64,000 bases of DNA from NCBI GenBank assembly GCA_965219085.1, contig OZ244720.1:1952001-2016000 (forward strand), in the 5' to 3' direction. Position numbers and translations under genes: made by a program. This DNA is from Dehalococcoidia bacterium. Lineage in GTDB: Bacteria > Chloroflexota > Dehalococcoidia > UBA2979. The notes under the pieces were generated by a model that saw only the letters and a program-made list of their open reading frames with translations, ran no database searches and was not told where the DNA came from. Below, in pieces: positions 18,525 to 29,989 of the stretch; the first letter of the stretch is position 1; each line of letters starts with the position of its first letter.

Positions 18525-19495
18525 GCAGGGTGGCGCTGTCCCGGGACTCCGCTCCGGACAGGCTCGCTCAGCACGATGACCGTCGTCGCGCTCCCGGTGC
18601 TCGCGCCCACTCGCGGTCGGTCGCCGCCAGGCGGCCGCGTGCCGAGCCGCCGAACCACGTCTCGGCGCTAGATTCCCAGTTCGACTAGACTGTAGACAGG
18701 CGGGTCCTGAAGCTGGTCAACATCGTTGACGAGCACACGCGCGAGGCGCTGGCGATGGTGGCCGTGCAGGCGCATCGGCGCCGACGCCACCGCCTCAACG
18801 CTCGAGCGGATCGTGGCCTGGCGCGGGACGGCGCCTAGCAGGGTGCTGAAAAAGGCGCGGCCATCTGGCAGGATGGGGCTGGCGGCGGGGGCATAGCCTG
18901 GGAGGCAGCCCCGTGCGAGGTGACGCCGAGCGCCAGACCAACATGTTGCTGGCGGTGACGCCGGACTCGTTTGTCCCGGCCGAGCACCCGATCCGCCGCA
19001 TCAAGCCGATCGTCGACGCAGCGCTGGCCCGGCTCTCGCCGCTGTTCGACACGATGTACGCCAGGGGCGGCCGGCCCTCGATCCCGCCCGAGCACCTGCT
19101 CAAGGCGAGCCTGCTGATCGCGCTCTACTCGATCCGCAGCGAGCGCCAGTTCTGCGAGCGGCTGCGCTACGACCTGCTGTTCAAGTGGTTCTTGGACCTC
19201 AACATCTCAGACGAACCGTTCGATGCCTCGAGCTTCTCGAAGAACCGCGAGCGCCTGCTCGCAGCGGACGCCGCGCATGCCTTCTTCGCCGAGGTGGTGG
19301 CCGAGGCAAAGCGCCGCCGGCTGCTCTCCGCCGAGCACTGCACGGTGGACGGGACGCTGCTCGAGGCCTGGGCCTCACTCAAGAGATGGCATGAGGGCCG
19401 GTCTCTTCCTCAAGGGGGATACTCGCCCCCGAAACAGCGGCCTCGATGGGCCAGAACGGCTCTTTGCGGAGCTTTGACGAGGTAGGAGACCGGCC

Positions 19496-20584
19496 GTGCA
19501 GCAGGATACCGCAACGACGTGGAGCATTGAGGGCAAGGAAGGGTCAGGGGTCACCATCGGCCTCGACGTGGGCGACCGCTACACCCACGTCCACGCCCTC
19601 GGCGCCGGCGGGGAGGTGGTACGTGAGAGGCGCGTCCGCACCACGACGGCAGCGCTGGGCATGGTGCTGACCGGCCTCCCCCCATCGCGGGTCGTGATCG
19701 AGGCGGGGCCGCGCTCGCCGTGGCTGAGCCGCCTCATGGCGGACCTCGGCCACGAGGTGGTCGTCGCCAACCCGCGCCAGGTCGCGCTGATCGCCCGCAG
19801 CCAGCGCAAGACCGACCGGCTCGACGCCGAGTGGCTGGCGCGGCTGGGGCGCTTCGACCCCCAGTTGCTCGCCCCGATCCGCCACCGCAGCGAGGCGAGC
19901 CAGCACGACCTCGCCGTGGTGCGCGCCCGCGACGCGCTGGTGCGCTCGCGGACGCTGCTCATCAACCACGTGCGCGGGGCCGTCAAGGCCTGCGGAGCCG
20001 CGTTGCCGTCGTGCACGGCCGAGGCGTTCCACCGCAAGACGGCGGACCACATCCCCGACGGGCTGCGCCCGGCGCTGCTGCCGCTGGTGGAGGCGATCGG
20101 CGAGCTGACCGCGCGCATCGCGGCGGCCGGCCGCGAGATCGAGGCGTTGTGCGAGGCTCACTCCGAGACCGCGGCGCTGCGCCAGGTCACGGGCGTCGGG
20201 CCGATCACCGCGCTCACGTTCGTGCTGACGATCGAGGATCCTGGGCGCTTCCCGAAGAACCGCGAGGTCGGCGCCTACCTCGGGCTCGTGCCGAGGCAGC
20301 GCGACTCGGGCGAGCGCACGCCGCAACTCGGCATCGGCAAGAGCGGCGATCCGCACCTGCGGCGGCTGCTGGTGCAGGCCGCGCACTACATCCTCGGCCC
20401 CTTCGGGCCCGACACCGACCTCCGCCGCTGGGGTGAGCGCTACACCGCTACGGGGGCCGGTAACGCGAAGAAGCGCGCCGTCGTGGGCGTCGCGAGGCGG
20501 CTGGCGGTGCTGCTGCTCGCGCTGTGGAAGACCGGCGAGGTCTACGAGCCGTTGCGCGACGCCGCGGCGCAGGAGGCCGCGTAG
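19496..20584 (+). CDS. IS110-family DEDD recombinase/transposase
   Basis: IGLDVG, VVIEAG, KTDRLDA, GVGPITA, LGLVPRQRDSG. Confidence 0.95.
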   Translation: MQQDTATTWSIEGKEGSGVTIGLDVGDRYTHVHALGAGGEVVRERRVRTTTAALGMVLTGLPPSRVVIEAGPRSPWLSRLMADLGHEVVVANPRQVALIARSQRKTDRLDAEWLARLGRFDPQLLAPIRHRSEASQHDLAVVRARDALVRSRTLLINHVRGAVKACGAALPSCTAEAFHRKTADHIPDGLRPALLPLVEAIGELTARIAAAGREIEALCEAHSETAALRQVTGVGPITALTFVLTIEDPGRFPKNREVGAYLGLVPRQRDSGERTPQLGIGKSGDPHLRRLLVQAAHYILGPFGPDTDLRRWGERYTATGAGNAKKRAVVGVARRLAVLLLALWKTGEVYEPLRDAAAQEAA

Positions 20585-20908
20585 CAAGGCGCGGCGCCGA
20601 AGCAACCGACCAGGAGAGCGAGACTGAGACGGACCTGGGAGGAGGCCCAGCAAACCAACCACTGCACGTGATGCCGGGCAACGGGCGACTGCGAGGCGGT
20701 AGCGGTCCAACAAGGACGTTCAAGAGTTGGCAGCGCCCCCTGGAAGCAGGATGTGCCTTCATGCACCGGGCCCGATACGTGGCCCATCAAAGAGTGCGGA
20801 TAGAAGCTCGGCACAGGCTCCGTCAGGGGACATCACGAGCGGATCGGCCCCGATGTCGAGGAGCGCCACGCCCCGAGGAGGAAGCCGCCACGTCGGCCTT
20901 GCAGAAAG
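20585..20908 (+). ncRNA. Predicted bridge/seek RNA of the IS1111-type element
   Basis: Short segments match both sides of the actual target site and both sides of the circle junction (see findings); transcript limits unknown. Confidence 0.7.
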
Positions 20909-21819
20909 GTCGGGTAAGGGGCTGGCGCGGTACGAGCCGTAGGCAGTGGCGCTTATCCCGCCGGTTTCCCGCCGGTGCTCACTTCCACGTGCCGTAGCCA
21001 ACGCCCGTTTCCAGCCCCTCCCCTTCGAACCGTGCATGCGGTTCTCCCGCACACGGCTCACCGACGTCCTTCACCGGATGGCATTCGGCCCCGCCCGCCA
21101 CGCACGCTCCACAACGTCCCTGCGGTGGACTTTGTCGTAGAGCGCGTGAAAACGTCGCTCGGCTCGGCCTTGGCCGCCCGGTAGAGCGTGTGCTGTAGTT
21201 CTCGGACCTTTTGCTCGGCGGTTCTAGCCACGACGGGCACTCGCCAATCCTTCCCCAAGCTACACGCGCAGACGAAGTAGCGGCCCTTCCCTCACCGGCG
21301 GTTCTGTTGTCCGCTCGGCTCAATCGGTACTATGGCCGCCTCCGACTCCCTCCCGGCCGGCTACCCACTTCCCGGTTCGTCACCGGTTATAGGGCACCTC
21401 GCTCCGGCACCAATCCGCAGGCGCCGGACCGGGGAGGGCCTCCCCAGTTCCCGCCGTCACCTTCCACACGTTCCGCGCCCTCTACGCCGGGAGGTTCTTC
21501 GGGGTTGCGCCTCCAGGCTCTTCACCCCTTCCATGGCCTTCGCCCTGACGGCCGGGGCTCGGCTCCTCCTTGTTCCCACCATGCGGTGGGTATGTTCACG
21601 ACGCGGCAGACTTCGCTTCATGCTGCGGACCGCGTGGTCGCTCCCCCTCAAGGGCTTTCGACATCGGGCTCCGGCCCGGCCCGTTTCCAGACCCGACCGC
21701 CGATCTGCTACCGGGCCCCCTGGCAGTTACCCGGACCGGACTTTCACCGGTAGGCGACGACGAGCATGTCTCCGGACTGATCAGATCATTCTGCACCGTC
21801 CTTCGACTTCAGGGCGCAC
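20909..21819 (-). mobile_element. Group II intron (911 nt) with internally deleted RT ORF
   Basis: 5' GTGCG; ggtgaaagtcc domain I motif; domain V gagccgtgtgcgggagaaccgcatgcacggttcg; domain VI ending ..cccttacccgAC. Confidence 0.92.
21071..21240 (-). pseudogene. Vestigial group II intron-encoded protein
   Basis: KVRELQHTLYRAAKAEP / RRFHALYDKVHRRDVVERAW (RT N-terminal region, one frameshift) joined directly to ..PNAIR* just before domain V; no YADD. Confidence 0.8.
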
Positions 21820-22999
21820 ACCGTCCCTCATAGAAGCTACCGCCCGCGCGACGAGCAGGAGCCACCCCCGGGCGGACGCAACCCGGATGTCGACTTCCGC
21901 GGGCGGCGGCGCAGCCGCGATACGCATAGCTCCGGCACCGACCCGCAGGCGCGGCTGTACACAAAGGGAGCGGGGCAGACGGCGAAACTCAGCTACATGG
22001 GCCATCTGCTGACCGAGAACCGTCACGGTCTGGTGCTGGACGTGGAGTTGACCGAGGCGAACGGGTACGCCGAGCGCGAGGCGGCGGTCACGATGCTGGA
22101 GCGCAGCGTGAGCGGCTGCGGGACGCTGGGCGCCGACCGCGGCTACGACACGCGCGACTTCGTGGCGGAACTGCGCGCGCGCGGCGTGACGCCGCACGTG
22201 GCGCAAAACGACCGCGGCCGCCGCAGCGCCGTGGACGGGCGCACCACGCGGCATCGCGGCTACAGGCAGAGTCAGAAGCGACGCAAGATCGTGGAGCAGG
22301 TCTTCGGCTGGATGAAGACCGTGGGCGGCGGGCGCAAGCTGCGTTTCGTGGGCCGCGAGCGCAACCGCGGCTGGCTGGAGCTCACCGCCGCCGCCTACAA
22401 CCTCGTGCGCATGGCCAGGCTCGAACTCGCCCCTGCGTAGGCGCAGTGCGCCCTCCGGCCGGTCCGGGAGCCCTCAGAGGCCCCCGGGGGCAGGTCAGGA
22501 GGCCACCATCACGAACCCGGAGGCGGCCTCAAGCCGCCTCTCGCCACTCCGAGACCCCGGAAGGGCGCTTCTTCAGCACCCTGCTAGGTACATCCGTTGC
22601 GACAACGGGCCAGAGCTCGCGGCGAACCCGCTACGCGACCTGGTGCCGGTTCTCCAGCACTGGCAGCAACTACACCGAGCCCGGTGCGCCGTGGGAGAAC
22701 CCGTATGTCGAATCGTTCAACGGCCCGCTGCGCGACGAGTTCCTGGCTGTCAAGCACTTCGACAGCCTGCTCGATGCGCAGGTACTGATCGAGGGCTGGC
22801 GGATCGAGTACGGCACGAGTCGCCCGCATCGTAGCCTGGGCTGGCTCACCCCGGCGGCCTACGTCGAGCGCTGGGAGGCTCCGCAACATGCTCGACTCTC
22901 ATAAGTGGTGGTCTCGCGAGGAGGGTCCGGTCATCGGCATGCGAAGAGGTGGATCGGGGCCACAAGGAAGTCGTGTGGAACTCGCCGTCGGACCCGAAC

Positions 23000-24406
23000 T
23001 TACCGAGTGGAACGTTCGAGGTTCGGCGTGAGATCCACCGCTGTAGCCGTGAGCGCCGAGTACTCGCACCCATCACTACAGGGAGTGGTTCTCTGCACCT
23101 CCATGGTGCCAGGATAGCCATCGTAGGTCTGCGGGCCGATGCCGCCGATGCGAGGAGAGCCCGTCACGAGCCCGACAAGTTGGAGCACCTCGTGGGCGGC
23201 GACGCTCATGCTGAATGGGAAGACGTTCCGGCCCGAGAGCGCGGCCTTCTCCTCGTCGCTGAGTCCTTCGATGTAGTCAGGGTCGTCGAGTTTCCCTTCA
23301 CGATCGAGGGCGACATCGCTGCGTCGCAATTGGCCGAGGCAGACCATGCAAGCGCGGCCCGGACCGACAGTGTGGATCCGCCAGGCGACGTGCTGCGGGA
23401 TCCCATCGGACTTCACCCGTGCCATGATCCCGCCATCGATGATGGGGATGAGGTGGCTGTAGGCGAGAGCGTTGAGCAGGTGCCGCGGCCACGGCCGGTC
23501 GACGCAGGAGATGAGGACGTCGCAGTCGAGTGCGGCCGCCAGTCCTGCTGGCGAAAGCAAGCTCTGTGGGAACGGGCGCAGCTCGAGTTCGGTGGCGGTC
23601 GAACTCAGAACGGCGTTGCGCGCCGCCAATTGGACCTTGAGGAGACCCGCTTCGACATCGGCCCCTGTGGCACCGACCGTTCGATCGAGGTTCCGAAGTT
23701 CGAGCTTGTCGAAATCGATGTACGTCAGGCGCCGCACACCCATGCGGGCCAGCGCCTCGGCGACGAGGCTCCCCACGCTTCCGAGCCCGACGATGCCGAC
23801 GCGCGTGCGTACGAGTTGCTGCTGTGCAACCTCGCCCCACACGCTCACCGTCGCGACTTGACTGGCGGTCACGGTCGCACGGGCCTCATCAGGGTGGTAC
23901 GAGGTGGAGAGTTCTGAGCCCACTACGCGGACCGACCGGGCCCCCCGGCGCTCGAAAGTGCGTGGCGCCCGGCGGATCCAGAACCGGCCGCTCCATGCCC
24001 CATCCAGCGCCCGTGTGAGCCCGACGAGCGGCAAGCCCGTGCGGCCGAACACGGCACCTGCAATCCGGTCGCGCTCGGCTACCACATCGTCGTGGCTCAT
24101 CCCCTGCCAGCCGGCGTGAGGGTGCCCGTGCAGGAAGGCGACACCGCAGCCCTCGGGGATGTCGGACAGCACTCGCCGCAGGTACTGAGAATGGAACGAC
24201 ACGTTGCCGTGGAGGACTCGGTCCCCAGCTTCGGGGAAGACCAGTTCTGTAATGACGGCCGTGTGGCGGTGCTGCCCGACACTCGGCTTCCAGTATGCGA
24301 AGGCCAGGTCTTCCTGGCGCGCATCCTCGTGGAGGTGCCCCCTGAGCACCTGGTCGTGGTCGGCCGTCATCGCCACCGAGAGATCGAGCGCGGTGGCGTC
24401 GATCAT
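23000..24406 (-). CDS. JAB/JAMM peptidase - ThiF/E1-like adenylyltransferase fusion
   Basis: N-terminal QEDLAFA..LHGHP..MSHDD (JAMM); C-terminal GIVGLGSVGS, DFDKLELRNLDR, SCVD..R, CMVC..CSDGC. Confidence 0.9.
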   Translation of the reverse strand: MIDATALDLSVAMTADHDQVLRGHLHEDARQEDLAFAYWKPSVGQHRHTAVITELVFPEAGDRVLHGNVSFHSQYLRRVLSDIPEGCGVAFLHGHPHAGWQGMSHDDVVAERDRIAGAVFGRTGLPLVGLTRALDGAWSGRFWIRRAPRTFERRGARSVRVVGSELSTSYHPDEARATVTASQVATVSVWGEVAQQQLVRTRVGIVGLGSVGSLVAEALARMGVRRLTYIDFDKLELRNLDRTVGATGADVEAGLLKVQLAARNAVLSSTATELELRPFPQSLLSPAGLAAALDCDVLISCVDRPWPRHLLNALAYSHLIPIIDGGIMARVKSDGIPQHVAWRIHTVGPGRACMVCLGQLRRSDVALDREGKLDDPDYIEGLSDEEKAALSGRNVFPFSMSVAAHEVLQLVGLVTGSPRIGGIGPQTYDGYPGTMEVQRTTPCSDGCEYSALTATAVDLTPNLERSTR

Positions 24407-24777
24407 GCCACTGGCCACCGGTCGTCGCAGAGGACAGTGAGAATGTGTGCCCAGAGGCCGCGCGGCGTCGGGCGGTGGTCGTAGCGCCGGCTCCAGTACA
24501 GTCAGTCGGGGCCGATCCCGCTCTCCATGGTCTTCAGCGGCTCGCTCCCGTCCATGGGGACTAGGTGAGGGCGGGTGTGGATGGCCGGCGGCACCACGTA
24601 GGGGGCCGCGTCGACACGCTGGATGGCGACATCGCAGCGCCGACCGCGCAAGGCACCGCTCGGCAGTTCGAAGTCGCGAACCACCGAGTAGTTGTTCCCG
24701 TCGTCGCCGCTGAGAACCTCAGCGGTGAGACCGAGGCCCCGGACGTATTCCTCGAAGTCGTCGGCGGTCATCGTCAC
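24403..24777 (-). CDS. Prokaryotic E2-like protein, with in-frame TGA at 24504-24502
   Basis: DFELPSG..DVAI..PYVVPPAIH..GPD*LYWSRRYD..LWAHILTVL; start and stop overlap the Ubl and E1 genes. Confidence 0.65.
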
Positions 24778-25058
24778 GAGACGGGTGTCGCGCCCTTGAA
24801 CGTGGCCGTGAACTCCTCGCCGGACTCGACGGGGACGGGCTTGTCTGCGGACTCGAAGTGGTGCTGATCGGAGTCGCGGGTGAGTTCGTACTCCTCGACG
24901 GGGGTGAAGCCGGCGCTCGCGAGGATCTCACCCACCGTCAGGGTGAACGGCTCGCGATCGGGGGGCTTCTGGTAGGCGTGCGTGACCTCCTCGCCGTTCA
25001 CGAAGTACTTGATGACTTCCTCCCCGGCACCCGGCCGGGCCACAACTTCCTGCGTCAC
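24774..25058 (-). CDS. Ubiquitin-like (multi-ubiquitin family) beta-grasp protein
   Basis: RBS gaggag + GTG; KYFVNGE..LTVGEILASAG..YELTR..VPVESGEEF..KGATPVS. Confidence 0.75.
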   Translation of the reverse strand: MTQEVVARPGAGEEVIKYFVNGEEVTHAYQKPPDREPFTLTVGEILASAGFTPVEEYELTRDSDQHHFESADKPVPVESGEEFTATFKGATPVS

Positions 25059-25146
25059 GGGTATGCTCCTCGTGAACTGCTCTACCGCGCGCCAGAGATG
25101 TAGCGTGCTGCCGTAGGTGACAAGCGTTGATCGAACCTGATACTTT

Positions 25147-25163
25147 GTCAACTGTGGGTTGAC
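25147..25163. promoter_or_regulatory. Palindrome GTCAAC-N5-GTTGAC: back-to-back -35-like boxes / candidate operator
   Basis: Lies in the 159-bp gap between the divergent Ubl operon and the XRE regulator. Confidence 0.5.
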
Positions 25164-25217
25164 CACGAGGCGTCAGGCCTCGCAGTTGGCAAGAGGGCAA
25201 CATCGGGAGGTGCCGCG

Positions 25218-26375
25218 ATGCTGGGCGAACGGCTACGCCAGGCAAGACTGGCGGCAGGGCTATCGCTGGAGGGCCTCGCCGAACGGCTGGAGCGACCGCT
25301 TACCAAGCAGGCGCTGTCGAAGTACGAACGCGGCCTGTCGCAGCCGCCCCCGAGCCGAATCGCAGACCTCGCAGCGGCGCTCAACGTGCGGACATCGTCG
25401 CTGCTCGCGGAAGCTGATGTCGAGATCAAGTGGGTCGCCTACCGGAAGCTCCAGCGGCTGAGCAAGTCCCGACAAACGCAGGTCACGGCCGTCGCGACGC
25501 AACGACTCGAGAGCGAGGTCAGGCTCCGAGAGCTGTTCCATCTCGCCGACCGCCACGACCTGCCGGGCCCGATTGAGGTCCGCCACATCCACGACTGCGA
25601 CGCCGCGGCAGCGCACTTACGGATGCTCTGGAACCTCGGGGACCGCCCCGTCGATAGCCTTATCGAACAGATCGAGGAGCACGGGTGTGCGGTCGTGACC
25701 TGGCCGGAGGAGTGGGGCTTCGACGGGCTCTCGGGGTGGGCGAACCAGACGCCTGTGCTCGTGCTCAACGAGGCAGCGCCACCGGATCGCTTCCGCTTCA
25801 ACGCGGCGCATGAGATAGGCCATCTCGTCATGAAGAGCACAGGCGATGCGAAGATCGATGAGGCGTTCGCACACCGCTTCGCAGCTTCCTTTCTCGTGCC
25901 GGCCGAGGCGGCTCGCCGTGAACTTGGTCAGCGGCGCCGGGGACTCGACATGGACGAACTGGGCCTCCTCAAGCAGCGGTGGGGCCTGAGCATGCAGGCT
26001 TGGATTCGCCGCGCGCACGACCTCGAGATCATCAGCGCTCAGCTGTACCGTCGACTGAACATGCGGTTCCGTCGGGAGGGATGGCACCGCAAGGAACCGG
26101 TCGAGTACGCGGGAACTGAGTCGCCAACACTGCTTAGGCGACTCGTGCTGCGCGCGCTGACCGAGCGGATGATCACATCCGAGGAGGCAGATCGCTTCTA
26201 CCCGGGCTCCTCAAGGGATGCCCCGCAGGGGCCGTCCGGTCGTTCCTCGCTGCGAGACCTCGCCAAGCGGCCGATTGAGGAACGCCACCAAGCGATTCGC
26301 GCAGCTCGGATCACAGTCGACGCCGATGAGACCGAGGCGTGGGACGAGACTGTGGGCGACGGTCTCGAGGAGTGA
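25218..26375 (+). CDS. XRE HTH - ImmA/IrrE metallopeptidase fusion with acidic antitoxin-like C-tail
   Basis: LGERLRQARLAAGLSLEGLA..ALSKYERG; RFRFNAAHEIGH; tail EAWDETVGDGLEE. Confidence 0.9.
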   Translation: MLGERLRQARLAAGLSLEGLAERLERPLTKQALSKYERGLSQPPPSRIADLAAALNVRTSSLLAEADVEIKWVAYRKLQRLSKSRQTQVTAVATQRLESEVRLRELFHLADRHDLPGPIEVRHIHDCDAAAAHLRMLWNLGDRPVDSLIEQIEEHGCAVVTWPEEWGFDGLSGWANQTPVLVLNEAAPPDRFRFNAAHEIGHLVMKSTGDAKIDEAFAHRFAASFLVPAEAARRELGQRRRGLDMDELGLLKQRWGLSMQAWIRRAHDLEIISAQLYRRLNMRFRREGWHRKEPVEYAGTESPTLLRRLVLRALTERMITSEEADRFYPGSSRDAPQGPSGRSSLRDLAKRPIEERHQAIRAARITVDADETEAWDETVGDGLEE

Positions 26376-26746
26376 GCGGATCGGAGTCGGCAACCGTGCC
26401 GCCGACGCGCGGCGAGGTCTGGCTGGTCCGCCTGCCGCGTGCGGTGGGTGCTGAGCTTCAACGGGTGCGTCCAGCGGTGATCGTGAACTCCCCTGCGTTT
26501 GATGCGGTGCCGGTCCGCATCGTCGTGCCGCTCACGACGTGGCTCGCCGAGTTCACCGGGAGCAGCAACAAACTCCTGATCGAGGCGAGCGAACGAAGTG
26601 GCTTGGACGCGGACTCTGCAGCCGACTTCCTGCAGGTCCGCAGCGTGTCGGTGGAGCGACTCGTGCAACGGCTTGGGGGGCTGGATGCGGATCTCGTCGA
26701 GGAGATCGTCGCCGGCATCGCGATCGCCCTCGACTACCAGCCGTGA
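26372..26746 (+). CDS. PemK/MazF-family toxin
   Basis: RGEVWLVRL..GAELQRVRPAVIV..IVVPLTT..QVRSVSVERL; GTGA overlap with the upstream gene. Confidence 0.92.
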   Translation: MSGSESATVPPTRGEVWLVRLPRAVGAELQRVRPAVIVNSPAFDAVPVRIVVPLTTWLAEFTGSSNKLLIEASERSGLDADSAADFLQVRSVSVERLVQRLGGLDADLVEEIVAGIAIALDYQP

Positions 26747-26822: not shown

Positions 26823-27800
26823 TTACGTCGCGGCAGTTGCGCCGTCACGACCAGCGGCACACGCTCGATTTGGTCGGTTCTGAACAGTGATACCCATGTT
26901 CGTGCAATGGTGAGAAAAATCCTCACCAAATCTACCTATTTCGTGCGGGATCATGCCCTCAAGCGCGCCTGACGCTCCGTCGTCGGTTTTCTCGATCGTG
27001 ACGGAGATCTGCATCGCCTCGGCGACATTCTTGAGCCGACCCGCCTCGATTTCCTCCTCGACGCGCTCCCGGAGCGCCTCGCACGTGGCGGCGAACTCGT
27101 CGGGGTTCGCGGGAGTGCGGGGCGCCGAACCAGAGCCGTTCAGTCGAGCGATGGTTACCTCGGCCGGCGAGCGGCGGGTGCGAATGACCTCGAGTTCCTT
27201 CTGCAGGTACGCCTCATCGATCTCGCCCATCTGGAAGAGCTTGAGCACCCGCTGTCGCTGATTGTCGAGCGACGCGAGGAGTTGCTGAGCCGCGGTCAGG
27301 TCGTCATCGCGCGCGTCGTCTGACGACGCATGCTCAAGCTCTGCCAGCACGACCTCCGGCGATGCAAGAACCGTTGTGAGCTCGCGCGCCACCGCGCGCT
27401 CGGGGTCACCCGCGCGGACGTAGCGCGTCGGACAGCGGTCGTGACGCGGACCGGCGTAGGCCCGGCGGCAGAGGTAGTAGCGGTACTTGCCCATCGATGT
27501 CTGGCCAACCATCGCCCCGTTGCAGCGGGCGCAGCGCATGAAGCTGCCAAGCGGGTAGTCGTTCTTGCGCTGCGCCTGGCGTCGCCGCTCGGGGTCCAGG
27601 AGCCGCGTCTGCGCCGCGTTGAACAGCTCCTCGGAGATGACCGCCGGCGTCGCGTCGGGTACCTCGATCCACTCGGACTCGTCCCTCAGTTCGACGATAC
27701 GGCGGCGCTTCCCCGCTGACGGGGTCTCGCCGGTGCCGGGTCTTCGTGCGCTTGAAGATGGTGCGCCGGGCGTCCCCCGGGTTGCGCAGCATGTTCAGCA
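26823..27800 (-). pseudogene. Large serine recombinase, C-terminal part only (recombinase domain end, Zn ribbon, coiled coil)
   Basis: MLRNP.., PAVISEELFNAAQ, MRCARCNGAM..YRYYLC..C, coiled coil; catalytic domain absent. Confidence 0.8.
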
Positions 27801-27987: not shown

Positions 27988-28183
27988 CTTCACCCTCCCC
28001 TGCGGCGTAACCTCCTACATGTGACGATGTTGTTGGCGGTTCGGGTAGTGCGGGCGACCTCCGCCGGGTACCCGCAGTGCGAGGTCGAGCGCCCGCCAGG
28101 CGCGGTGCGGGAGTTGGACTGCTCGCCCCTGAGGGATGACGCGGCGTATTGGCAACATCTGCCAAACCTGCGAGCGCAGCAAC

Positions 28184-28423
28184 ATGAGCACGATGACCGT
28201 ATCGCTCCCCGAGGCCCTCAAGTCCTTCGTGGACCAGCAGGTCAGCGCCCGCGGCTACAGCTCGTCAAGCGAGTACGTCCGCGAGTTGATCCGCAAGGAC
28301 CAGGATCGCCAGCGCCTGCGCGGTCTGCTCCTCGAAGGCGCGTCGTCGTCGCCGGCGGTCACCGCCGGTGCGGACTACTTCGGACGGCTTCGCGATCGCG
28401 TCCGTGAAGCCCGACAGCGGTGA
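28184..28423 (+). CDS. ParD-like (RHH) antitoxin
   Basis: MSTMTVSLPEALKSFVDQQV..GYSSSSEYVRELIRKDQ. Confidence 0.9.
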   Translation: MSTMTVSLPEALKSFVDQQVSARGYSSSSEYVRELIRKDQDRQRLRGLLLEGASSSPAVTAGADYFGRLRDRVREARQR

Positions 28424-28545
28424 GCGAGAACCAATCGTCCTTCGCGAGCGGGCGGGGCGGGATGTCGACGAGGCCGTCAATAACTGTCTGGCCGAGGCGC
28501 CAGCGGCGGTTGCGGTGGCCTTCATCGACGCCTCAGAACGAGAGC
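28420..28545 (+). pseudogene. ParE/RelE toxin N-terminal remnant
   Basis: PIVLRERAGRDVDEAV..AVAFIDA, truncated just before the IS256. Confidence 0.65.
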
Positions 28546-28563
28546 TCCAGATACAACCTGGCG

Positions 28564-29989
28564 GGAGATATCGTCAAGAGTTGTGGATCGCTGATCGGAG
28601 AGATCAGGCGGCGTACCTCCCGTGAGTTGCTTCGTTGCTCCCGTCCGGGCTGACCGGTCGCTCGTGTAGCACCCCGCCGGCGAAGACGCCGCCGGCCCGG
28701 ACGACGGCGACGAGCTGGGGTGCGTTCACCCGCCGCCAGCGCTGTTGCGCCGCGTCGAGCAGCTTGTAGGCCATCGCCAGCCCCGCTGACCGCGAGCCCG
28801 CGCCCTTCGTGACACGCTGGCGCAGCCGCACCGTGGCGAAGGTGGACTCGATCGGGTTCGTCGTGCGCAGGTGCACGTGGTGCTCGGCGGGGAAGTCGCG
28901 GAACGCCAGCAGCCGTTCGAGGTCGTCTGTGACCTTCGCCGTCGCCTTCGGCCACTGCGCGAACTGCTCGCCGAAGGCGCGCGCCGCAGCGAGCGCCTCG
29001 GCGCGCGTCGCCGCGCCAGACACCGCGTGCAGCTTCCGCTTCGCCTCCCCCTGCACGCGTTCGGGCAGCGCCGCCAGTACGTTCTGGGTCTTGTGCACCC
29101 AGCAGCGCTGCTCGCGCGTGCGGGGGAAGACCTCCCTGAGCGCCGCCCAGAAGCCGAGCGCCCCCTCCGCCGATGGCCAGCTCGGGGTCGCGCATGCCGC
29201 GCTCGCGCAGCTCCCGCAGCAGGTCGAGCCAGGACTGCGTGTCCTCGCGGTAGCCGTCCTGCACGGCCACGAGTTCCGTGCGGCCGTCGGGCCGTACGCC
29301 CACCAGCACCAGGCAGCAGAGCCGGTCCTCCTCGAGGCGCACGTTGAAGTGCACGCCGTCCGACCAGAGGTAGACGTAGTCGACCGCGGCGAGGCTGCAC
29401 CGCCGCCAGCACTCGTGCTCCGCCTGCCACGCCTCGCTGAGCCTGCTCACGGTCGAGGCGGAGAGGCCCGCCTCCGAGCCGAAGCAGGCCGACAGCGCCG
29501 GCACGAAGTCGCCCGTCGAGAGCCCGCGCAGGTAGAGCAGCGGCAGCACCTCGGTCACCTTCGGCGAGCGCCGCATGTAGGGCGGCAGGAGCGCCGAGAT
29601 GTAGCGCTCCCCGTCGCGGCGGTCATCGATGCGCGGCGCCTGCACGGCGATGCGGCCCGCGGCGGTCGTGATCTCTCTCGCGCGGGCGTGGCCGTTGCCC
29701 ACGACGAGCCGCCGCCCTTCCTCATCGACGGCGGCGGCGTAACGCTCGAGGTAGGCCTGGCGCTCGGCCTCCAGCGCCACCGCGAGCATCTCCAGGGCGG
29801 CCAGGCGGCAGAGCTCGTCCAGGCCGACCTGCGGCCCGGGTCTCCCTTCGCGCTCGCCTCCCTCATGCACTACCCTCAACATCCGGCGTACTCCTCCCGG
29901 CCGGCTTCCTCCGGCCACCTGCTACTGGACTCAGGGAGGGTACGCCTCCTCTCGCTCCTGGCTCATCCACAACTTTCGGGTATACCTCC
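28564..29989 (-). mobile_element. Second IS256-family element; transposase 28604-29882 with frameshift near 29165
   Basis: TIRs ending ..agttgtggat / atccacaact..; GNGHAR, YLWSDGV, HKTQNV, RTTNPIESTF. Confidence 0.9.

Follow-up and report, generated by a model that had tools for sequence, protein, structure and literature searches.

A 64,000-nucleotide stretch of a Dehalococcoidia bacterium genome (contig OZ244720.1, positions 1,952,001 to 2,016,000; hereafter the window, in whose own numbering all positions are given) carries at 25218-26746 a regulator that joins an XRE-type helix-turn-helix (HTH) domain to an ImmA/IrrE-like M78 peptidase and, directly behind it, a toxin of the PemK/MazF family. 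The two genes form a real, conserved two-gene module, and we consider it likely that this module is a Rosmer-type toxin-antitoxin pair of type II with a three-part antitoxin, made up of a MazF-neutralising C-terminal tail, the HTH and a peptidase that would act as trigger. The elements of the pair are:

25218 to 26375, plus strand: regulator/antitoxin gene, 385 amino acids (XRE HTH, M78 peptidase, helical domain, linker and tail)
25218 to 25409, plus strand: XRE-type HTH domain, residues 1-64 (Pfam HTH_3 at residues 6-59, 1.2e-11, and HTH_31; modelled helices at 2-63)
25677 to 26015, plus strand: Peptidase_M78 (ImmA/IrrE) domain, residues 154-266 (Pfam, 6.5e-15)
26193 to 26246, plus strand: variable linker, residues 326-343, poorly conserved and of varying length (predicted local distance difference test score, pLDDT, <50 at 336-343)
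26247 to 26372, plus strand: C-terminal tail (residues 344-385), in which an acidic segment containing W375 (26340-26342) follows a helix; putative MazF-neutralising module
26372 to 26746, plus strand: PemK/MazF-family toxin gene (Pfam PemK_toxin, 1.1e-19), starting at GTG 26372 or GTG 26396

Pfam matched the regulator with HTH_3, HTH_31, HTH_19 and Peptidase_M78 only. The HExxH signature of the peptidase, HEIGH, occupies residues 198-202 (25809-25823); H198 and E199 are invariant and H202 is nearly invariant in 27- and 28-row alignments of regulator homologs. A model of the monomer reached an overall pLDDT of 86.6 and was confident over residues 1-330, with the dip in the linker noted above and values of 40-71 in the tail, as expected for a segment that would fold on its partner. 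The extra tail that a preliminary description of the window had noticed behind the HTH and HExxH domains proved to be a discrete C-terminal domain of about 45 residues (~344-385), ending ...AWDETVGDGLEE, and the linker in front of it may be a hinge or a cleavage region.

The tail and MazF occur together. We sought MazF by tblastn downstream of the regulator homolog at 80 genome loci (loci compared carry L numbers) and found it directly downstream at 15 (L003-L016 and L019), which span Chloroflexota, Planctomycetota, Marinimicrobia, Desulfatiglandales, Bacillota and Verrucomicrobiota. Inspection of the C-termini at 23 loci (L003-L025) revealed an extension of 40-75 amino acids reaching the MazF start at the same 15; the other eight lacked both. 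In the 57 loci beyond these 23, examined for MazF alone, none was found. In an evenly drawn phylum sample of 401 genomes, 31 carried a regulator homolog (E≤1e-40) and 29 loci were analysed: MazF lay -13 to +33 nt from the regulator end in 23, every one of which had the extension, one locus had a tail at a contig end, and five had neither tail nor MazF. The tail profiles were passed by 21 of the 23 MazF-linked regulators of this sample. Because the loci are mutually related, these co-occurrence counts describe a pattern and are not independent trials.

One family of the phylum sample (L156-L160, L163, L165-L170) has a variant tail with a short ...EV.TSEH end that lacks the aromatic-acidic terminus. 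At these loci MazF is clearly more divergent (E 1e-20 to 1e-27 vs 1e-41 to 1e-51 elsewhere). The pairing of variant tails with divergent MazF suggests that tail and toxin change together.

The tail also exists outside this regulator. A profile of 51 positions, made from 16 tails, was searched against 1.84 billion cluster representatives and matched 574 at E≤1e-3 and 103 at E≤1e-10. Among the best 150 of the 574, 58 proteins have ≤80 amino acids, 70 have 81-130 (together 128 of ≤130), 11 have 131-200, four have 201-340 and seven have >340; in nearly all of these 150 the module sits at the C-terminus or within ~25 residues of it. Throughout the wider family the conserved core consists of an aromatic residue and acidic residues. 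Searched against solved structures, the profile had no meaningful relative (best E 0.04), and the earlier remark that W-D-x4-D-G-L ends are typical of MazE could not be verified. Pfam and NCBIfam gave no model over the tail region in ten tail-bearing proteins (eight of them small, 63-154 amino acids). Eight tail proteins were called 'hypothetical protein' in their source, left unnamed or, for two fused ones, named after the peptidase or HTH domain, and none was called an antitoxin. A common antitoxin domain thus appears to have been missed by current family libraries, and since the 574 representatives bear no family model or antitoxin name in the members checked, many 'orphan' MazF genes may have a partner.

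What stands in front of the tail varies. In the small protein P0133 the tail follows a MazE_antitoxin/AbrB domain (4.2e-5, narrowly missing the cut-off); an AbrB domain followed by a C-terminal tail is the classical MazE layout. At L139 the module follows an XRE HTH without peptidase, the locus appearing to hold the XRE part alone. It was also seen behind a dUTPase domain (P0244) and behind a 250-residue region of unknown type (P0198), both of which could be gene-calling fusions. With 12 small tail proteins we fetched 64 metagenome loci, of which 62 contained the tail and 55 extended ≥200 nt downstream of it; a MazF-family frame lay -60 to +150 nt from the end of the module in 43 of these 55. 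At 15 of the 64 loci, L139 among them, the tail was fused in frame to XRE/M78 sequence, and none of the 64 had a free tail gene next to a separate XRE-M78 gene. A search of viral contigs with the small-tail alignment gave 54 pattern matches and 0 confirmed ones, so nothing was found to mark the module as phage-borne. Judged from sequence, the tail is a mobile domain that is found free-standing, behind AbrB/MazE and behind XRE alone, mostly directly upstream of MazF.

Does the tail fit MazF? We co-folded tail residues 326-385 (28-row alignment) with two copies of MazF (16-row alignment), a prediction for which the preliminary description had called, and obtained a predicted complex with interaction prediction scores from aligned errors (ipSAE) of 0.80, 0.79 and 0.79, compared with 0.01 for the best of three controls. 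Of 80 solved complexes, 58 clear the mark that the co-fold passed, as do 2 of 110 mismatched pairs; this calibration is rough, the alignments being our own. The runs had ≥81% of contacts in common, with a partner pLDDT of 70-71. In the predicted complex, the tail helix (345-360) rests on the C-terminal helix (103-110) of one MazF copy, W375 is flanked by P45/Q80 of one copy and by residue 83 of the other, and R25 and T47 are contacted in both copies. Among 16 MazF homologs R25 is nearly invariant and T47 invariant (numbered from GTG 26396); they are the presumed equivalents of the catalytic Arg and Thr of solved MazFs. The closest solved relative of the window MazF is M. tuberculosis MazF9 (5hjz, 1.9e-21).

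The window pair resembles MazEF in gene order, with a MazF-fold RNase directly downstream of the antitoxin and stop and start overlapping or close. Solved MazE tails lie in the MazF dimer groove, and the acidic, flexible end of the window antitoxin, which includes an aromatic residue, is predicted to do likewise. The window pair differs from MazEF in that its antitoxin has an XRE-HTH and an M78 domain in place of an AbrB/SpoVT (PF04014) or RHH domain, and in that its tail is without a detectable sequence relative among solved structures or a family model in the eight small members.

Is the fusion genuine? The preliminary description had allowed for a separate tail gene merged by a sequencing error or a one-off deletion; both homolog lengths and independent contigs agree instead with a fusion. 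At least 90 of the 120 homolog clusters listed have 374-408 amino acids, with 92-100% query coverage and 49-100% identity, and a minority of 333-361 amino acids end before the tail. Contigs from other sequencing runs cover the tail and the stop/start junction (25970-26428) with zero differences, and their agreement rules out an assembly error. Among the contig differences listed, no insertion or deletion falls within 25218-26746; 131 further rows are other-letter differences. We also considered the tail as a separate gene, and a search for short proteins like residues 326-385 gave three matches (67, 126 and 176 amino acids), all N-truncated pieces of the regulator family and none a free mazE gene, so this possibility was rejected.

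The coordinates likewise bear out the overlap of the two genes described earlier: the regulator stop, TGA 26373-26375, overlaps GTG 26372-26374 (GTGA), which is in frame with the PemK_toxin reading frame ending at 26746. The alternative start, GTG 26396, has GGAG 8 nt upstream. At L003 the GTGA start is the sole in-frame MazF start, and at L004-L007 MazF starts 1-30 nt past the regulator stop. The absence of a separate mazE, also claimed before, held as well. There is no space for one between regulator and MazF, and the tail profile searched against the whole genome found no other tail-type partner for the window MazF, its two matches being the window regulator and a fragment flanked by insertion sequences (IS). 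This second copy (L002, G000:C1:896194-896382) is 45% identical and lies, between IS-like transposase frames, in a 176-residue frame without HTH, peptidase or MazF; it looks like the remnant of a paralogous regulator gene. The genome contains two more distant MazF-family frames (G000:C1:2924876-2925214, E 1e-13, and 1358171-1358467, 1.5e-5), neither with a tail-type partner.

To which family does the core belong? Residues 4-323 matched 14 PADLOC RmrA models (best 4.7e-53), far more strongly than PADLOC capP (1.5e-12) or capH (4.3e-9). The RmrA matches stop ~40-70 positions short of the ends of those models, a hint that C-termini may differ with the toxin. The best NCBIfam model was the spr1629 family repressor/antitoxin (99 bits, below its cut-off of 335). 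The nearest folds of the regulator model were CapP (7t5t, Foldseek E 2.6e-5) and IrrE/PprI (3dti, 8sln), and those of the HTH were the CapH N-terminal domain (7t5u, template modelling score (target) 0.83), SinR and ImmR. PDB entry 9vzy, a solved 393-residue HTH protein, matched at 5e-4; a literature search on this entry returned nothing relevant.

The preliminary description knew of no described system with this combination. Precedents do exist in the literature. Proteins with XRE and Zn-peptidase domains are the antitoxins of RosmerTA, a 'hub' antitoxin family with varied toxins (PMC10440598; 10.1101/2022.05.11.491447), and spr1629 is RipB, an antagonist of the toxin RipA that has been assigned to the Rosmer family (10.1101/2025.09.02.673660). 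Similarly, COG2856-Xre fusions occur in operons with PIN (42) or RelE (15) toxins, for which a LexA-like protease/repressor logic was proposed (PMC2701414, Makarova, Wolf, Koonin 2009). The window pair shares with RosmerTA an XRE HTH and ImmA-type Zn-peptidase antitoxin beside a toxin gene, and its core matches RmrA. It differs in its toxin, as the partners named in the available RosmerTA text are PIN-like and unknown toxins, MazF not among them; in its neutralising part, an appended domain beyond residue 323 that is also found free-standing; and in its gene order, the antitoxin coming first here. It resembles the COG2856-Xre fusions in that a Zn-protease fused to Xre shares an operon with a type II toxin, whereas the MazF partners in that survey, as far as its accessible text goes, are AbrB, RHH, MazF/ccd and XF1863, not COG2856, and no tail module is described there (PMC2701414). 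How XRE and Zn-peptidase antitoxins hold their toxins is not stated in the portions of the Rosmer literature at hand (PMC10440598; 10.1101/2022.05.11.491447), and a published AlphaFold attempt on one Rosmer-type pair failed (predicted DockQ, pDockQ, 0.05; PMC10440598). For one class of toxin, the window subfamily offers a testable answer: neutralisation would reside in a short C-terminal domain interchangeable among carriers (none, AbrB, XRE or XRE-M78).

Two further systems are close in design. In CapH and CapP, an XRE repressor and an M78 peptidase activated by single-stranded DNA (ssDNA) are encoded divergently upstream of a defence operon, and CapH-CapP fusions have been noted (10.1101/2022.04.27.489752). 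The window regulator likewise combines an XRE domain with a CapP-related M78 domain and is upstream of, and divergent from, a facing operon; in contrast, it has an extra tail and a downstream toxin gene, and the words 'toxin', 'MazF' and 'antitoxin' are absent from the available text of the CapH/CapP paper (10.1101/2022.04.27.489752). In the Panacea system (PanA), a conserved core serves as platform or sensor while small C-terminal add-ons neutralise, for example Phd-C on PanA against Doc (PMC10440598); there the core is DUF4065 rather than XRE-M78, and the appended element is also a different one. Among the titles, abstract openings and passages that our literature search covered, we found no description of an XRE-M78 and MazF pairing, though supplements to the NetFlax, Bub and CapH/CapP papers may list such pairs. 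The window pair is best described as one of an already described kind, XRE and Zn-peptidase antitoxins with varied toxins, here with MazF as the toxin and a modular MazE-like tail.

The facing operon, which begins on the minus strand 51 nt upstream of the regulator, and the region between the divergent genes contain:

25147 to 25163, no strand: palindrome of 17 bp, GTCAAC-N5-GTTGAC, lying 55 nt ahead of the regulator ATG in the divergent promoter region; candidate HTH operator
24774 to 25166, minus strand: gene for a ubiquitin-like (Ubl) protein of the multiubiquitin type, open reading frame of 130 amino acids; translation probably begins further downstream than the listed GTG (match to L006 from residue 47 onwards)
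24403 to 24777, minus strand: E2-like gene with an in-frame TGA at 24502-24504 (listed frame 24502-24777, 91 amino acids; the frame runs 32 codons further)
23000 to 24418, minus strand: E1-like protein, 472 amino acids (ThiF, 2.6e-28, at 186-336 behind an N-terminal domain of ~180 residues; PADLOC 'E1-E2', 1.7e-17)

Pfam recognised only the ThiF domain of the E1 in this operon, the 130- and 91-residue proteins having no match; the name 'Bub' for it would rest on a published operon type (PMC11601596) and not on a sequence test. The counterparts at related loci do have matches: Multi_ubiq was found in the Ubl counterparts of L003 and L007 (2.8e-6 and 4.1e-8), Prok-E2_E in the L007 counterpart, to which the window E2-like protein has a weak likeness (E 0.017), and ThiF in L003, L004 and L007. 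The L007 E1 counterpart also has a weak Prok-JAB match (2.7e-4, below the cut-off), so that the facing operon there reads Multi_ubiq, Prok-E2_E and JAB-ThiF; that of L003 includes a 377-residue ThiF protein and a DUF6527 protein, and the E1 of L006 has several frame breaks. At the codon of the window TGA the L006 E2 homolog has Trp, and the window sequence over 24400-24816 recurs without change in contigs of runs X1, X2 and X4. The TGA is probably a nonsense mutation, which may leave this genome with defective Ubl conjugation. A reading of TGA as Trp under an alternative genetic code was considered for this stop and is ruled out, since the regulator itself ends at TGA.

How firmly is the operon tied to the pair? 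A neighbourhood search, likewise proposed in the preliminary description, found E1 and Ubl genes facing the regulator in six of eight distinct close loci (the window, L003, L004/L148, which are the same place, L006, L007 and L149), with the divergent geometry of the window recurring in L003, L004, L006, L007 and L149, and a regulator-MazF pair without E1 or Ubl at the other two (L005 and L147). At the distant MazF-linked loci, four E1 queries found none, and the upstream genes are unrelated (NlpC/P60-like, MFS, AbiEii, HsdR and function-unknown genes). The divergent ubiquitination operon described earlier is present, on the minus strand, but the linkage is confined to a close Chloroflexota clade and its E2-like gene has the premature TGA. 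Within this clade the regulators are 65-87% identical, while the facing E1 is 69%, 44% or 31% identical to that of the window, or not detectable; near-identical regulators next to dissimilar E1 proteins suggest that the regulator-MazF cassette is kept beside differing Ubl systems.

Each of the six close loci in the alignment retains both arms of the palindrome, three of them with one or two letters altered, in a region whose mean column identity is 54%; L005, which lacks the Ubl operon, is among the six. The window has one match, compared with 0.05 expected, and the 3.3-Mb genome has two sites; the half-sites can also be read as back-to-back -35-like boxes. The palindrome is consistent with autoregulation and perhaps, as known for CapH/CapP, with joint control of the Ubl operon. 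The other exact copy (L177, G000:C1:2605228-2605244) lies among uninformative reading frames.

Two readings of this arrangement have to be weighed. In the first, the regulator-MazF pair functions independently of the Ubl operon, and their adjacency would reflect only clustering within a defence or mobile island together with shared descent in one clade. The restriction of the linkage to close loci and the persistence of the pair without E1 at L005 and L147, in the former with its palindrome, speak for this possibility, to which we give somewhat less than an even chance: the very different Ubl/E1 operons faced by similar regulators suggest a cassette kept beside swapped Ubl systems, and the palindrome sits between the two divergent genes. 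The opposite view, that the protein is a CapH-CapP-type regulator of the Ubl operon only, its tail an oligomerisation or regulatory element and MazF an unrelated neighbour or an antitoxin-independent effector, is highly improbable and already disfavoured. It draws on the CapH and CapP matches, on the divergent position, CapH and CapP being carried by 31% of Bub ubiquitin-like operons (PMC11601596), and on the C-terminal domain of CapH, which mediates oligomerisation (10.1101/2022.04.27.489752). However, the tail tracks MazF and not the Ubl operon, outside the close clade no E1 was found and the neighbours are unrelated, free-standing tail homologs lie directly upstream of MazF, tail-less homologs have no MazF, and the predicted tail-MazF complex is specific.

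How would the toxin be silenced and released? In the mechanism that we propose for the Rosmer-kind pair, three steps are envisaged: (i) the tail (~344-385) would wrap around the MazF dimer and cover its RNA-binding and catalytic groove, keeping the RNase silent, as the sequence patterns and the co-fold predict; (ii) the XRE HTH would bind GTCAAC-N5-GTTGAC and repress its own operon and, in the close clade, probably also the facing Ubl-E2-E1 operon, a role suggested by the position of the site and by the CapH/CapP precedent; and (iii) the M78 peptidase, with its HExxH intact, would by analogy with CapP, IrrE and ImmA act as trigger upon DNA damage or in response to phage-derived ssDNA. A cut within a flexible linker, by the same or a neighbouring copy, could then lift repression and expose or free the tail to decay, leaving MazF active.

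The chief alternative to this third step is that host proteases simply turn the antitoxin over. The tail might neutralise MazF while the M78 domain has no part in toxin release, either because host proteases remove the antitoxin or because MazF is not released at any time and the pair serves only to stabilise the island; the core would in that case be an independent CapH-CapP-like regulator fused by chance to a small antitoxin gene. An IS-rich locus fits such an addiction role, and the tail occurs behind various N-terminal partners (AbrB, XRE alone, XRE-M78) as well as free-standing, and therefore does not need the peptidase. Against this, HExxH and the surrounding residues are invariant in homologs down to 28% identity, so the peptidase is under selection in its fused form; the fusion is stable in six phylum-level groups; and RosmerTA antitoxins are themselves XRE and peptidase proteins. 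Taken together, we regard a pair without peptidase-driven release as possible, though rather unlikely.

Several observations count against a three-part antitoxin acting as we propose. Classic type II antitoxins are removed by the host Lon/Clp proteases. The window MazF had no PADLOC match at E≤0.01, to RmrT or to any other model. Two MazF-linked regulators (L161 and L167) fell just under the tail-profile threshold, although the extension is present, and 12 of the 55 metagenome tail loci have no adjacent MazF. Because MazE-MazF complexes are solved, the co-fold pass may partly reflect likeness to the MazF groove. Finally, the IS elements around the module and the premature stop in the facing E2-like gene mean that it may be a leftover here. 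The preliminary description saw in one polypeptide a repressor, a stress-sensing protease and an antitoxin. In silico this view is supported in part, an HTH and an intact HExxH peptidase being joined to an antitoxin-like tail that is tied to MazF by co-occurrence, by small-protein matches and by the predicted complex. Release of the toxin by the protease upon DNA damage and derepression of Ubl conjugation are hypothetical, and the supposed lack of precedent does not hold.

On a broader and decidedly speculative view, which we think unlikely to hold in full, Rosmer-type XRE-M78 proteins would be general sensor and regulator platforms that take their toxin specificity from small tails, and a peptidase cut in the linker upon a DNA-damage or phage signal would both free MazF and switch on the Ubl operon. 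If true, a single proteolytic event would make one polypeptide a two-output immune switch, with an RNase and Ubl conjugation as its outputs. The position beside Ubl operons, which often have CapH/CapP regulators, suggests a test of joint triggering of toxin and Ubl conjugation.

The region around the locus looks like an IS-rich island. Transposase-like reading frames, judged by eye from their translations, occupy 18900-22900 and 28533-29918, some of them apparently interrupted by others. Downstream of MazF, 26823-27539 on the minus strand encodes a serine recombinase fragment that keeps the C-terminal part (Zn_ribbon_recom, 1.1e-9) but not the N-terminal catalytic one, and a small ParD/RHH-type antitoxin frame (3e-4) follows on the plus strand at 28136-28423.

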